Virus record (IMG/VR): IMGVR_UViG_3300025316_001101 | DNA from: a virus | Taxonomy: Duplodnaviria; Caudoviricetes | DNA: 64,000 nucleotides | Direction: 5' to 3' (one strand) | Shown here: positions 9,763 through 20,212 of the stretch, one piece after another | Position numbering within the stretch: the first letter of the stretch is position 1 | Layout of the letters: each line of letters opens with the position of its first letter | The notes under the pieces: generated by a model | What the model saw: the letters and a program-made list of their open reading frames with translations, nothing else | Told to the model about the DNA's origin: nothing | Database searches by the model: none | Position numbers and translations under genes: made by a program

Positions 9763-9997
9763 AAAGTCCTCGGCCGACAAGAAGCGTAGAGACGCCATTC
9801 CCTTTCGGGAAGTTATAGCCTTCACGCACGGACCCTTTCAGGTTACCGCCGTTCGAAACGCAATTAGATCTCCCCTTCGAGAGATCACCGGATTCAGTCG
9901 AAACTTACCGGCTTGTGCTGTCGCTTGCAGGTCGCCCTGTTTTGCTACCTTAGGACCATCATTGATGTAGTCCCCACTACATTCGGCCGAGGACTTT
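9763..9997 (-). ncRNA. structured ncRNA E1 carrying 23S rRNA H69-H71-like segments
   Basis: Perfect 15-bp terminal stem (9763-9777/9983-9997); GAAA/GAAG-capped hairpins with G-U pairs favouring the minus strand; GGUCCUAAGGUAGC, CGACCUGCA, GGUAAGUUUCGAC, GAAUGGCGU segments. Confidence 0.8.
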
Positions 9998-10001
9998 GTA
10001 T

Positions 10002-10029
10002 AATATAGCAGATTGTCAACGTTTTGCAA
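10002..10029 (-). promoter_or_regulatory. sigma70-type promoter for ncRNA E1
   Basis: TTGCAA-16 nt-TATATT with extended TG; start site would fall at the 5' end of the terminal stem. Confidence 0.55.
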
Positions 10030-10450
10030 GAGGAGATGATGCAATAGCAACGAATTCTTGCCCGAACATCGTATCTTCAAGGGTGTACCGATATCCTTTA
10101 GGCTTCACGTATCGATCAAGCATCGCTCGATACAATCGTACTCGACTCGGTTCCTTGGCCAAGAATTTGATTATCCTGGGATATACTTTGTCTACGTATT
10201 CTCCCACCGCATTTGCTACTGTAGCGAATACTGGAATTTCGTCCCCCGTACCCGTAATACCATGTGAAGAAAGCTCTTTCGGTTTCATCAGTGTAAAACT
10301 CACATCTGTGACGCCATCATGGTGATCGAAATCGATATCATATTCTTTCCGATTGATCTTAAAGCTTCCAGCCCAATGTCCACCACTTTTTATTTGCCAT
10401 TGAATCGGCAAAGGATTATCAAACAATTCTAAGAATAATGTGAAATTCAT
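10016..10450 (-). CDS. hypothetical protein with capsid-targeting-like N-terminus
   Basis: MNFTLFLELFD; ATGA overlap with upstream gene. Confidence 0.7.
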   Translation of the reverse strand: MNFTLFLELFDNPLPIQWQIKSGGHWAGSFKINRKEYDIDFDHHDGVTDVSFTLMKPKELSSHGITGTGDEIPVFATVANAVGEYVDKVYPRIIKFLAKEPSRVRLYRAMLDRYVKPKGYRYTLEDTMFGQEFVAIASSPLAKR

Positions 10451-10971
10451 CTTCTCACCAACTTCCCTTCCTTCTCAAGCTTTGGCACCAATGTGGGCTG
10501 CTTTTTATATCCCGTCCAAAGAGCCCATATAGGATTGTCTTTAGGAGGTCGAGAAGATTCATCGTCTGACAATTTTTCTAAATATGGTTCGGCCCACTTT
10601 CCAGCATACCATTGGCCAACCGATAACGGAACTTGTGTTACATCAGGACGTTTGAAATAATAATACTTCCAAACCCCAAACGCATCTGGCGAGACGTTCT
10701 TTCTATCAGACACGGCATAACCACCATTCGCTGTAATCTCTTCAATCATAATATCATAAATCAATGGACCATATCCTTTGGTGGCATCTGATTTCTCTAT
10801 GACATACATTGACTCGCCACTAAGATTTTTAGACTTATAGGCTTCAGCAGCACCATGAACTGGATCTCCGTCTAATAGAACGGTAATCTTGCTGCCTTTG
10901 TTTGATACTATGATGACTTGCCCTTGTGGGGGTTCATTCATCATCGCTTCTAGCCACTGTCTGAATTCCAT
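10447..10971 (-). CDS. hypothetical protein with capsid-targeting-like N-terminus (GNAT-like GYGPLIY motif)
   Basis: MEFRQWLEA; CTAAATA 5 nt upstream. Confidence 0.7.
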   Translation of the reverse strand: MEFRQWLEAMMNEPPQGQVIIVSNKGSKITVLLDGDPVHGAAEAYKSKNLSGESMYVIEKSDATKGYGPLIYDIMIEEITANGGYAVSDRKNVSPDAFGVWKYYYFKRPDVTQVPLSVGQWYAGKWAEPYLEKLSDDESSRPPKDNPIWALWTGYKKQPTLVPKLEKEGKLVRR

Positions 10972-11000
10972 AGAAGTATTTAGCTTCTATAGAATAAAAG

Positions 11001-11071
11001 TGGGCGTTAGTGGAATCGAACCACTTTTTCCACCTTGTCACGGTGGTGTCTTGCCACTAGACCAAACACCC
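11001..11071 (-). tRNA. tRNA-Val(GAC)
   Basis: Cloverleaf, CCACC-GTGACAA-GGTGG. Confidence 0.9.
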
Positions 11072-17618: not shown

Positions 17619-17631
17619 GTTATTACCTTAG

Positions 17632-17704
17632 TGGAGACTACGGGAGTCGAACCCGTGCTCTTCTGATTGCGAACCAGACGCTTTCCCAATTAAGCTAAGT
17701 CCCC
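17632..17704 (-). tRNA. tRNA-Ala(CGC)
   Basis: Cloverleaf, G3:U70, loop TTCGCAA. Confidence 0.92.
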
Positions 17705-18321
17705 ATGAGATTTATGTATAATATATTTAGATAAATCAGTCAATGACAAACCTATATTATTCTTCTTATACTAGCTTGATGTCGATCATTCAACCATGCA
17801 GATTGTAAATTGCTACCGGCACTCCCCCATAATATAGACCTTTTAGAAAATCCAGAATGGACCCTATTAAGCCCATAAGCCCAACCTGCTGGAAAATGTT
17901 TTACGGACCACGGTACACGCCATCGAGAAGACCGCAAGGACCACATGGAAGGTCTAAATTTCATCCCCACAGCCTTCTTTTTATAGATGTGTGTTGACCC
18001 GGAGTGAACCCGGATGAGTGTGTGGCCTCGGCCGCTTCATAAATTTTATGGATTGCAGTGCTGCCACTATGAGCAAATCTTGAATTCCAAGAATAGCCGG
18101 GCATGTGGTTTCCAACTGACCAGCAAGCTCGCCCACGTGCCCAATATGAATTATGAAATTGCCACAGCGGTCGATGAAATGGTTTCAATATTTGTTACCG
18201 CCTCTCCATTATGTGAATTACCCCGCCCCTAAAGAGGGCGGGGCTTCCGTTCCAATCAGCAGCCCACTCAAAGCGGGTCTTATGCCAAGACAAACGGCTC
18301 TCCCTGTATTCCAACAGGGGT

Positions 18322-19461
18322 TTATACCTTCATGTGAATATTAGTTGCTGCGTTTTCATCCCTATCGTGATTAGTGAAGCAGTTCCAACAAGTCCAAGTC
18401 CTATCAGTAAGTTCCAAGTCCTTGTTCTGCCAACCACATACGGAGCATAATTGCGAACTTGGATACCATTTATCCACTTGTCGCAACTCACGACCATACC
18501 ACTCGGCTTTGTATTTTAACTTTTGGAAGAACGAGGAGAAGCAAGCATCGGCTTGCTTCCTGTGATACACCTTCTCCCTCCATCGCTCAATTTTACGAAC
18601 CTCTGGGTCTGCGTTCCTCAACATATCACTTACACAAAGAGTTTCAACGACAATGACTTGGTTCTCGTCAATTATTTTTCTACTTACTTTGTGTTGAAAA
18701 TCCTCACGAATGTTGTGAATGTGCTGCTCCAACTTGTTTAATTTAAGGTATGCTTTCGCTCTACCTTTGCTGTCTTTCTGTGTTCTATTCTTTGCTTTCG
18801 TCAAGAACTTCAATCTGTTTCTATATTTTGTTTTTGGTAGTGGGTTCTCATACTTTGTTCCATCGCTGCCCACTATTCCATGAACATTCATGTCCAATCC
18901 AATAGTCTTATCAGTAGTTGGAAGTGGAGTCATTACCTTGTTGGCTGTAATGCTCACGAAGTATTGTCCTGCTTTATTCTTGGAAATGGTGGCAAACTCA
19001 ATCTCGCCTTCAAGTGGTCGGTGGAGGATGATGGGGATGCCTTGCTTGAACTTAGGAATGCTCAACTTACCATCAATGACTTTGATATTCTGTAATACCT
19101 TGAATGATTGTTTGCCGTGTTTTTTCTTGAAACGAGGGAAGCCACATTTACCTTTATGTTTGCCTTGTGCTTTTAATTTAACCTTACGGAAGAAGTTGTC
19201 ATATCCATTTTGTAGTGCTTTGGCTGAGTATTGTAATGCTTGACTTCCTGCTTCCTTCAACCAGTCGTATGTTTTCTTTAACTCTGGGATAGATGTAGCA
19301 TTGTCATAGTAGTTCAATGATTTGTTCTCACCTTTATAAGCATTGATGCGTTGTTCAAGGAAATGGTTATACAAAAACCTCACACAACCAAAATGTTTGG
19401 CGAGTAGAACTTGTTGTTCCTCGGTGGGCATCAACCTATATTTGTAAGAAATTAAGGTCAT
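18322..19461 (-). CDS. tnpB: TnpB RNA-guided nuclease (C-terminal tail shortened by an apparent 1-nt frameshift relative to copy 2)
   Basis: HTH_OrfB start, IGLDMN, VVETL, CSVC/CWNC Zn ribbon, DRDENAATNI. Confidence 0.92.
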   Translation of the reverse strand: MTLISYKYRLMPTEEQQVLLAKHFGCVRFLYNHFLEQRINAYKGENKSLNYYDNATSIPELKKTYDWLKEAGSQALQYSAKALQNGYDNFFRKVKLKAQGKHKGKCGFPRFKKKHGKQSFKVLQNIKVIDGKLSIPKFKQGIPIILHRPLEGEIEFATISKNKAGQYFVSITANKVMTPLPTTDKTIGLDMNVHGIVGSDGTKYENPLPKTKYRNRLKFLTKAKNRTQKDSKGRAKAYLKLNKLEQHIHNIREDFQHKVSRKIIDENQVIVVETLCVSDMLRNADPEVRKIERWREKVYHRKQADACFSSFFQKLKYKAEWYGRELRQVDKWYPSSQLCSVCGWQNKDLELTDRTWTCWNCFTNHDRDENAATNIHMKV

Positions 19462-19637
19462 TTTGCTCCTGCGGGCATTAATGTTTTGTTCGTTTGATTT
19501 TCAACCCAATCGTGTATTAACAGTCGTATCGCTTCGCTCATATTGAGGTAATTACCATCGCACTTATCCTTGAACTTCTTGAATAATGTCGGATGGACAC
19601 GAATAGTCAAACTATGTTCAGCATTTTCTTTTGTCAT
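19458..19637 (-). CDS. ribbon-helix-helix (CopG/Arc-like) protein, 59 aa
   Basis: My translation MTKENAEHSLTIRVHPTLFKKFKDKC...MSEAIRLLIHDWV; ATGA-coupled to tnpB. Confidence 0.7.
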   Translation of the reverse strand: MTKENAEHSLTIRVHPTLFKKFKDKCDGNYLNMSEAIRLLIHDWVENQTNKTLMPAGAK

Positions 19638-19911
19638 ACACTTTATATAGTGTTGCCTTACAATTTTTTCACAACAAAATCAAAATTATTTTTTCAAGCC
19701 GTTTTCAATGGCTTTTATGCCGTTTTAGAGGGGAAGGCATTAGACCAAAGTTATTCAGCGTATGTCTAACTAAATTACATTATGACGCCTTACATCCCGC
19801 TACCCTAAAGAGGTTTGCCCTGTTCATTCGGTCGCTCGCTGACGCTCGCTTCCTCACTCACAGAGCAAACATTCCTTCGGAATGTAGGGGTTTTACGGCG
19901 TCCCAGATAAA

Positions 19912-20212
19912 TTTCGGCCCGACAAGGATGAATGCATGATGTTTTCTCAGGCTCTACCGGCATCGACCAGTGTGTTGTTACACCAAAGGGCGACTATCCG
20001 ATGTGGTCGGCTTCCCAGCATCATCCTCATTCTAGAAATGAGGGAGAGGCTGCACACCCACTCTTTGAATGATGGCTACTTCTAGGCCAACATCCTGGTT
20101 GTCTTAGCCTTTTGCAAAGCCCTTACTTCCCACTAAAACACCAAACAACTGCAAACGCAGATGAGACGAACTTCACTTCTGTTATGTAGTCCCACTCGCA
20201 TTCGAGCCGAAA
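19912..20212 (-). ncRNA. structured ncRNA E2 carrying the 23S rRNA H42-H44 (L11/L10-binding) domain with a 76-nt insertion
   Basis: 11-bp terminal stem; AGACAACCAGGAUGUUGGCCUAGAAGUAGCCAUCAUUCAAAGAGU (20060-20104) plus GUGUAACAACACACUGGUCGA (19963-19983). Confidence 0.88.

Follow-up and report, generated by a model that had tools for sequence, protein, structure and literature searches.

What kind of RNA combines the ends of one RNA family with a copy of a working site of 23S rRNA? The question is raised by two minus-strand elements, E1 and E2, in a 64,000-nucleotide (nt) stretch of DNA (the window) from the IMG/VR virus record IMGVR_UViG_3300025316_001101 (Duplodnaviria; Caudoviricetes). The window corresponds to the minus strand of G000:C1:163025-227024, and G000 is a 259-kb freshwater record that is rated as ~50% complete. 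The original prediction held E1 and E2 to belong to a new RNA family in which one scaffold presents different functional sites of the ribosome. Judged by their sequences, they are very probably Y RNAs with rRNA-mimic modules. The fuller reading, which we favor and consider likely, is that they are partners of a Ro60/Rsr protein of the phage, with 23S copies in place of the tRNA-like module, and that they may serve to tether or withhold other components. What is new is the presence of copies of 23S working sites on a Y scaffold, while the scaffold itself is known.

E1 and E2 do have related terminal stems (P1) and common ends, as had been claimed. P1 is formed by AAAGUCCUCGGCCGA/UCGGCCGAGGACUUU in E1 (15 bp) and by UUUCGGCUCGA/UCGGGCCGAAA in E2 (11 bp), and both stems are present in the minimum-free-energy folds. 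Inside P1, both RNAs open with CGAAUG, five variable nt and GGGACUACAU, with one extra G in E1, and at the other end of both, (C/U)UUGUCGG precedes the 3' strand of the stem. The 5' side of E1 reads CGAAUG (as a box, CGAAUGU) and then GUGGGGAC-UACAU, and its 3' side has GUCUCUAC, 5 nt and the box UUGUCGG; in E2, CGAAUGC and GUGGGAC-UACAU are found on the 5' side, and GUCUCAU and CCUUGUCGG on the 3' side. The second helix (P2) comprises 8 bp in E1 (GUGGGGAC/GUCUCUAC) and 7 bp in E2 (GUGGGAC/GUCUCAU), with UACAU next to it in both. Compared with shuffled sequences, the folding z-scores are -4.4 for E1 and -2.7 for E2. The 21-nt 5' box, with 16 fixed bases, has by simple arithmetic a chance expectation of ~1e-4 in this genome, where it is found only in E2 and in two copies beside the Ro60 gene, and with the extra G in E1. 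Moreover, homologs with covarying stems exist elsewhere: in E1, E2 and 15 relatives, P1 and P2 form in register, with stem sequences that vary from one RNA to another. As a separate observation, the GGGACU of the scaffold can pair with a GGUCCU of the module in eight of eight H69-type Y RNAs (see below; alignment A3, columns 18-23 with 41-46; in E1, 9975-9970 with 9957-9952). This pairing would compete with the GGGAC/GUCUC helix and may represent a switch, or an artifact of folding the 5' halves only.

By boxes, register and pairing, the common ends correspond to the stem with which YrlA-type Y RNAs (Rfam RF02553) bind Ro60/Rsr, and not to a new scaffold. The boxes are contained exactly in the Rfam YrlA consensus (acggCgaAUGCuuggGgaaCUAc ... 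AcUuGucGccg), the matching features being the terminal stem, CGAAUG(C), the GGGAC/GUCUC helix, ACUACAU and (C/U)UUGUCG; the second helix and CUAC of the YrlA model (ggGgaa/uucCcc) are present in both RNAs as well. A pattern scan of IMG/VR with CGAATGNNNNNGGGACTACAT retrieved 16 contigs. Most of the matches are ~60-nt RNAs with the order stem, CGAAUGC, NNNN-GGGAC, UACAU, short loop, GUCUC-NNNN, ~6 nt, UUGUCG and stem, and the remaining ones have a T-arm-like insert at the apex. The short relatives L015, L016, L018 and L013, with identical boxes, match RF02553 positions 1-114 (E-values of 1e-3 to 5e-8, 25-44 bits) with the tRNA-like middle deleted, and the first 52 nt of E2 nearly copy the 57-nt Y RNA of L011, including GUCUCAUC. 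The phage also encodes a Ro60 protein. Its open reading frame (ORF; L020:661-2370, 569 amino acids) matches vWA_Ro60 (1.7e-17) and TROVE (1.5e-6) and lies at ~127.1-128.8 kb of G000, in a locus 34 kb past the end of the window, with several Y RNAs that have the E1/E2 boxes directly downstream. TROVE is encoded on three of the five other viral contigs with the box. In the Ro60 and Y RNA array (G000:C1 ~127,100-130,000; loci L020 and L023), at least two long units appear to hold a complete small Y RNA within their own stem.

The original prediction explained the same ends differently, as an RNA family unrelated to any known one, whose closing stem is helix 71 (H71) of 23S rRNA opened at its loop. 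It is true that the 3' box of E2, UCCUUGUCGGG, is an exact 23S 11-mer (E. coli 1941-1951), and that CGAAUG also occurs in 23S rRNA. Yet identical boxes make up the YrlA consensus and are found in ~60-nt and in tRNA-like Y RNAs without any other likeness to rRNA, 23S rRNA has six extra nt between CCGAC and CGAAUG, and both the YrlA match of the relatives and the Ro60 gene in the phage contradict this explanation, which is also unneeded. Furthermore, a circular permutation, which had been part of the same proposal, is indeed seen in E1 and in the bacterial locus L165 (see below), but its point is at helix 69 (H69) and not at H71. An opened H71 is thus hardly credible as the origin of the scaffold.

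The interior of E1 resembles the H69 region of 23S rRNA in a rearranged order. All of its nine blocks of at least 7 nt fall within 23S ~1870-1985. The top block, GGUCCUAAGGUAGCaAAA, is identical to E. coli 23S 1921-1938 at 17 of 18 positions, and its score was beaten by none of 500 shuffles; the eight blocks beyond this core are 7-9 nt long. The summed block length was reached by 0 of 2,000 shuffles, and by 1 of 2,000 after removal of the core block, so the rRNA matches exceed the shuffled background, as had been anticipated. In a genome-wide scan, E1 ranked first of 17,258 scanned segments (21 versus a 99.9th percentile of 15); two other segments with high k-mer scores were rejected as artifacts of a 15-nt tandem repeat. 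With reference to the Rfam 23S structure, a first colinear run covers 1919-1938 and then 1958-1966, with H71 replaced by CAGG-GCGA-CCUG, and a second one, further 3', covers 1900-1920. The H69-like 3' strand (AUGGUC) follows ACUACAU, and GGGUCCGU and CUAUAAC lie 120-140 nt downstream. Additional hairpins and 23S-like blocks set E1 apart from the bacterial RNAs described next. An H71 hairpin in E1 was rejected, with three of its six pairs broken in a manual alignment to the Rfam structure. Rfam gave no match to E1, no syntenic relative was found in a protein-anchored search with the DUF6934 gene upstream of E1, and scans of IMG/VR for E1-like junction patterns gave chance or coding matches only. 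The 18-mer GGTCCTAAGGTAGCRAAA had 11 non-rRNA matches, about the number estimated by chance. Only two of them, both viral (L141:3440-3480 and L147:6294-6335), extend further, as isolated, near-identical copies (~40 nt) of 23S 1921-1956 that have no rRNA gene in their surroundings.

Relatives of E1 were instead found in bacterial genomes. A metagenome scan for ACUACAU and then GGUCCUAAGG led to L150, and the scan of species genomes for ACUACAU...GGUCCUAAGG to 11 more loci, mostly in metagenome-assembled genomes of Myxococcota (L165 is the same contig as L150). In the Myxococcota Y RNAs, an E1-like scaffold is followed by an intact H69 hairpin CCGUAACUAUAACGG, UCCUAAGGUAGCGA, a GNRA-capped hairpin and an AGCGA(U/C)GGC(A/G) box. 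The class can be defined by four features, all of which are found in E1: the Y scaffold, GGUCCUAAGGUAGC(G/A)A, the GNRA-capped hairpin (at the place of H71) and the AGCGAYRGCR box, i.e., AGCGA(C/U)(A/G)GC(A/G). Three bacterial members have 30 consecutive nt identical to 23S rRNA, and 24 alignment columns are invariant, while the GNRA hairpin has four pairs altered on both sides. In four bacterial loci, a gene with TROVE and vWA_Ro60 (rsr) lies 0.15-2 kb away; TROVE is present in 8 of 10 genomes with H69-type RNAs versus 2 of 14 control genomes, and canonical YrlA genes share loci with the H69-type RNAs. Being chromosomal and linked to rsr, these RNAs argue for a true Ro60 function. Most of them have the H69 hairpin in its natural order, whereas E1 lacks the intact hairpin CCGUAACUAUAACGG directly after ACUACAU. 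L165 is permuted likewise. Its H69 5' strand (GACCGUAAC) is found at the module's 3' end, which places the Y scaffold where the H69 loop has been opened, and AGCGACAGCA is common to L165 and E1. By its sequence features, E1 can be assigned to the H69-type Y RNA class as a member with rearranged order. Examples of other loci of the class are L156:2319-2527, L160:2882-3145, L163:6124-6422, L170:4118-4307, L171:2507-2695, L172:5704-5906 and L165:846-1012.

The module of E2 copies another site, the GTPase-associated center (GAC, to which uL11 and uL10 bind; helices H42-H44, E. coli 1030-1124, with the 58-nt uL11-binding domain at 1051-1108). Thus, the claim that one scaffold carries different 23S functional sites is borne out by blastn, the Rfam large-subunit rRNA (LSU) model and shuffled controls. 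The LSU model aligns E2 20106-19963 to its positions 1085-1152 (36 bits, E-value 5e-8), so the partial LSU match that had been expected in Rfam was obtained for E2, though not for E1. By blastn, 50 nt are 88% identical to Salmonella 23S rRNA (E-value 6e-9 against the whole phage genome), the sole significant 23S match in this genome. In local alignment, the likeness extends from ~1014 to 1112 of E. coli and includes UUAGUGGGAA, both strands of H42, H43 with its 1067 loop and H44 with its 1095 loop. H42 consists of a GGCU/AGCC lower stem, a kink-turn-like loop and CCAG/CUGG, and the lower stem differs from the GGCC/GGCC of Salmonella by a compensatory change. A1067 and A1095 are retained, as is the 1072/(1092-1099) triple in the form U1072/U1092-A1099, and the pairs 1057-1081, 1058-1080 and 1082-1086 (of the U1082-A1086 type) and the closing stem are formed. 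As differences from the ribosomal GAC, the module stands free of the ribosome in a Y RNA, has U1065C, and carries a 72-nt structured insert (19988-20059) between 1090 and 1091.

The E2 core belongs with a family of free-standing phage RNAs that copy the uL11-binding domain. A pattern scan of IMG/VR with GTTGGCNTAGAAGNAGCCATC retrieved 108 contigs, of which only two contain true 23S rRNA (loci L029-L136, e.g., L037:3107-3212, L119:307-429 and L116:1615-1760). These GAC-like RNAs mostly lie beside tRNA genes, often right after a tRNA or a promoter-like site. Their 5' part consists of the closing stem, GGAnGUUGGCUUAGAAGCAGCCAUC, one nt and UUUAAAGAGU, and their 3' part of UUUGGCGUAnnAGCACAC and the closing stem; overall, GGAnGUUGGCUUAGAAGCAGCCAUC...AAAGAGU is followed by a variable structured insert of 45-340 nt between 1090 and 1091, by UUUGGCGUAnnAGCACAC and by a covarying closing stem, a pattern that E2 19964-20100 fits. 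Covariation was computed on 66 distinct members, in which several invariant positions were fixed by the search pattern and are uninformative. The pair 1058-1080 occurs as UA (27), AU (18) and GC (19), 1057-1081 as AU (50) and CG (7), 1082-1086 as UA (30), CG (21) and UG (7), and the first pair of the insert stem as GC (33), AU (18) and UA (11), while the five closing pairs are 86-95% paired with at least four pair types each. The 1072/(1092-1099) triple is C/CG in 61 members, U/UA in four (E2 among them) and U/UG in one, and A1067 and A1095 are invariant. Rfam 15 gave a weak LSU match at most for the stand-alone RNAs. Two RNA classes are not recognized by Rfam 15, the H69-type Y RNAs of Myxococcota and the phage GAC-like RNA (>100 contigs), and the claim that Rfam holds no family like E1 and E2 stands for the two rRNA-like modules but not for the scaffold, which is YrlA-type.

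From these comparisons, E2 is a chimera, as far as its sequence tells, of a short Y RNA and a GAC-like RNA, the latter extended by a full H42 and placed in the 3' internal loop. It is the only GAC-like member found within a Y scaffold; Y-plus-GAC chimeras had no match in the metagenome scan, and the pattern found only true 23S rRNA in ten Myxococcota genomes. Such singularity could mean that both RNAs are accidents, i.e., that a GAC-like gene landed in a short Y RNA gene to give E2 and that E1 is a decaying, scrambled H69-type copy, both transcribed and without function. The order of E1 is indeed scrambled and its H71-like stem broken, a TnpB/IS605-type element just downstream of E2 marks a recombinogenic region, and close relatives were not found in phage collections (blastn against 50,697 phage records gave no match for E1 and only 23S contamination for E2). 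Nevertheless, P1 and P2 are fully paired around inserts of 171 and ~230 nt. E2 has kept the covariation of the base triple and the compensatory change in H42, E1 has kept all boxes of its family together with promoter-like and terminator-like signals of its own, and a second permuted member (L165) stands beside rsr in a bacterium. Accidental origins for the two RNAs are therefore quite improbable.

Short RNAs that copy the 23S site of an r-protein and bind that protein away from the ribosome are familiar from r-protein leaders (e.g., the L10 leader). These are cis-regulatory parts of r-protein mRNAs and copy local features only. Here, by contrast, a phage non-coding RNA reproduces a whole domain, tertiary contacts included, and no L11 gene was found in the phage record.

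How could such RNAs act together with Ro60? Y RNAs combine a Ro60-binding part with an effector part, by which PNPase is tethered, and Rsr of Deinococcus is involved in the maturation of 23S rRNA and in rRNA decay (PMC4201824). In one phage, Ro60 has been reported to bind the phage's own Y RNA-like RNAs and host PNPase (PMC12135203). Under the reading that we favor, Ro60 would bind the stem of E1 and E2, with uL11, the uL10-bL12 stalk and translational GTPases as docking partners for the module of E2 and with the 30S decoding center, or factors that bind or modify H69, for that of E1. In this way, Ro60 might be tethered to ribosome-related targets during infection, or the partners kept off the ribosomes. 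If the Ro60-Y RNA-PNPase machine is taken as a model, a 3'-5' exonuclease of the host could be tethered as well. This specific mechanism is offered tentatively, as possible but short of probable.

Several observations weigh against this reading, in addition to the rearranged blocks and broken stem of E1. The Rfam YrlA model matches neither E1 nor E2 at E-values up to 10 (gathering threshold, 69 bits), nor the Myxococcota H69-type RNAs at E-values up to 0.01. As there is no YrlA model score, the Y RNA membership of E1 and E2 rests on boxes, register and pairing; the missing score is probably due to inserts of 171 and ~230 nt, which go beyond a model of 114 positions. A covariance model of the scaffold itself was dropped because the 3' halves of long and short members could not be brought into register with MAFFT (alignment A1), and a short scaffold model was unable to span 235-301 nt. 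E1 and E2, placed in the tRNA region, are separated from the Ro60 gene by 88 and 78 kb and are thus in the same genome but not adjacent to it. In E2, the module is near the presumed Ro60 site, where it could disturb binding. Finally, no Y box was found within 250 nt of the other GAC-like RNAs (0 of 107) and TROVE is present on only 5 of 40 of their contigs, so in most phages the GAC mimic works without Ro60.

This last point bears on the main rival, which shares the identity claims of the favored reading and differs in how the modules act. They would serve as bait for enzymes or toxins that attack these sites of 23S rRNA, or as sponges for uL11, uL10 or H69-binding factors, with the Y scaffold and Ro60 merely capping and stabilizing them. 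A GAC-like RNA that is common in phages without Ro60 has a Ro60-independent job, which for this module favors a decoy, and its usual position within tRNA arrays and the retention of the universally conserved loop bases A1067 and A1095 would agree with it. In addition, a bacterial Rhs toxin is reported to ADP-ribosylate 23S rRNA at H44 in the GAC (PMC8661411). On the other hand, part of the invariance of the GAC-like RNAs is imposed by the search pattern, no GAC- or H69-aimed defense system is linked to these phages, and the H69-type Y RNAs are chromosomal and beside rsr in Myxococcota, which suggests a housekeeping role with Ro60 and not anti-defense. Overall, we consider decoys or sponges unlikely.

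The reading of E1 and E2 as Ro60 partners can be widened, with more doubt, to the proposal that Y RNAs, by imitating functional centers of the ribosome, steer Ro60 particles to the translation machinery. For an H69-type Y RNA, the place where Ro60 (together with an exonuclease) is docked would be the 30S decoding site or factors specific for H69, and for a GAC-type Y RNA it would be uL11, the stalk and translational GTPases. Myxococcota may use the H69 type for ribosome quality control, the jumbo phage may have taken over both types to remodel or protect host ribosomes, and the free GAC mimic of >100 phages would be a previously unrecognized translation-directed RNA. So far, Y RNAs of bacteria have been known to mimic tRNA, and the contacts of the effector module are still being sought (PMC4201824). 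The near base-for-base copies of H69 and the GAC suggest that Ro60 has the ribosome and its factors as partners, so that the effector part of Y RNAs, in bacteria and phages alike, becomes testable (candidates are uL11, the stalk, 30S subunits, RluD and RlmH). In addition, the existence of a GAC-like RNA in phages suggests that rRNA look-alikes, and not tRNAs alone, are a means by which they act on translation.

Compared with YrlA (RF02553; Chen et al. 2014, PMC4201824), E1 and E2 have in common the terminal stem formed from both ends, the CGAAUGC, GGGAC...GUCUC, ACUAC and UUGUCG boxes, the division into Ro60-binding and effector parts, a Ro60 gene in the genome with further Y RNAs beside it, and the placement among tRNA genes. 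They differ from it in their length (235-301 nt versus ~110-140), in having a 23S copy instead of the domain with T arm and D arm (no tRNA or T-arm match was obtained in E1 or E2), in the lack of an Rfam model match and, in the case of E2, in a module that sits in the 3' internal loop and not at the apex. Thermus phage phiLo is similar in that a phage Ro60 has phage Y RNA-like partners (Yrl1 and Yrl2) that are recognized through a CGAA-containing bulged stem, and host PNPase binding is reported (PMC12135203); its Yrl RNAs, however, are small stem-bulge-stem RNAs that adjoin the gene, and no rRNA-like module is described for them. No papers on Y RNAs with rRNA-type modules or on a phage GAC mimic were found in the literature searched.

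The coordinates of E1, E2 and their adjoining features are given in Table 1.

Table 1. Features of E1 and E2 and adjoining signals (window positions)
Feature	Position	Strand	Basis
E1, Y RNA-like gene, 235 nt, with 23S domain IV (H69 region) module	9763..9997	-	
E1 P1 5' strand, pairs with 9763-9777 (15 bp); U-run past the 3' strand	9983..9997	-	
E1 putative Ro60-binding 5' box: CGAAUG, P2 5' strand GUGGGGAC, ACUACAU	9965..9985	-	YrlA consensus and alignment
E1 module, 171 nt, at the position of the tRNA-like domain of YrlA: 23S ~1870-1985 blocks, order rearranged	9794..9964	-	
E1 H69 3'-strand-like AUGGUC and junction CUAAGGUAGCAAAA (E. coli 1919-1938)	9940..9959	-	
E1 GNRA-capped hairpin CAGG-GCGA-CCUG (place of H71 in 23S) and AGCGACAGCA box, also present in the Myxococcota Y RNAs	9916..9939	-	
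E1 run colinear with 23S 1900-1920: AACGGCGG-UAAC, GGGUCCGU (H69 5'-strand-like), CUAUAAC (H69 loop)	9812..9853	-	
E1 P2 3' strand GUCUCUAC, 3' box UUGUCGG, P1 3' strand	9763..9793	-	
Promoter-like site TTGCAA-16-TATATT, TG-extended	10002..10029	-	consensus match only
E2, Y RNA-like gene, 301 nt, with 23S H42-H44 module	19912..20212	-	
E2 scaffold 5' part: P1 5' strand, CGAAUGC, P2 hairpin GUGGGAC...GUCUCAU, 16-nt loop, tRNA-like domain absent	20161..20212	-	
E2 module in 3' internal loop of Y scaffold: UUAGUGGGAAG, H42, H43, H44	19950..20136	-	Rfam LSU, blastn, local alignment
E2 core fitting the stand-alone phage GAC-like RNA family, E. coli 1051-1108	19964..20100	-	
E2 3' box CCUUGUCGG and P1 3' strand	19912..19927	-	
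tRNA-Ala(UGC) without encoded CCA	20213..20284	-	tRNA gene prediction

The processing cues noted in the original prediction are present on both RNAs. Upstream of E1 stands a sigma-70-like site (extended -10) whose last position, 10002, is 5 nt away from the stem, and the stem is followed by a U-run, UUUUUAUU, which is terminator-like by consensus match only. E2 starts 1 nt past the discriminator base of the CCA-less tRNA-Ala(UGC), and thus tRNA 3' processing would generate its 5' end at 20212; no terminator-like site was seen 3' of E2. Lake and freshwater DNA contigs span parts of the region, with none of the variant positions listed inside E1 or E2, and RNA runs contained only 4-9% of the words of the region. 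Covariance models detected no 16S-like or additional 23S-like pieces in the phage, and neither L11 nor RtcB genes were found within the 259 kb of the record.

Among the neighboring genes (all on the minus strand), one for an MscL-like channel lies downstream of E1 (8786-9448). The TnpB/IS605-type gene (18322-19637; domains HTH_OrfB_IS605, OrfB_IS605 and Cas12f1-like TNB) starts ~450 nt downstream of E2 and is preceded by a 59-amino-acid ORF, and an ORF with helix-turn-helix and zinc-ribbon/HNH-like features (20275-20814) adjoins tRNA-Ala and E2 on their upstream side. At ~35440-35690, a 15-nt unit (GGTTTACCAGCAGCC and variants) is repeated in tandem over a long stretch, the source of the false 23S k-mer signals. 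The window contains ~33 tRNA genes, every one on the minus strand. Two of these tRNAs (16289-16362 and 43227-43301) have the amber-reading anticodon CUA and are labeled tRNA-Pyl by ARAGORN, which hints at UAG read-through or recoding in the phage. In addition, two tRNA-shaped genes (38689-38763 and 38839-38913, minus strand) flank tRNA-Val(AAC). Their anticodon arm is a 7-bp stem with a GCAA tetraloop (ARAGORN, "tRNA-???", anticodon "ca"), the YrlA model matches their area weakly (30 bits), and they look like non-decoding tRNA mimics.

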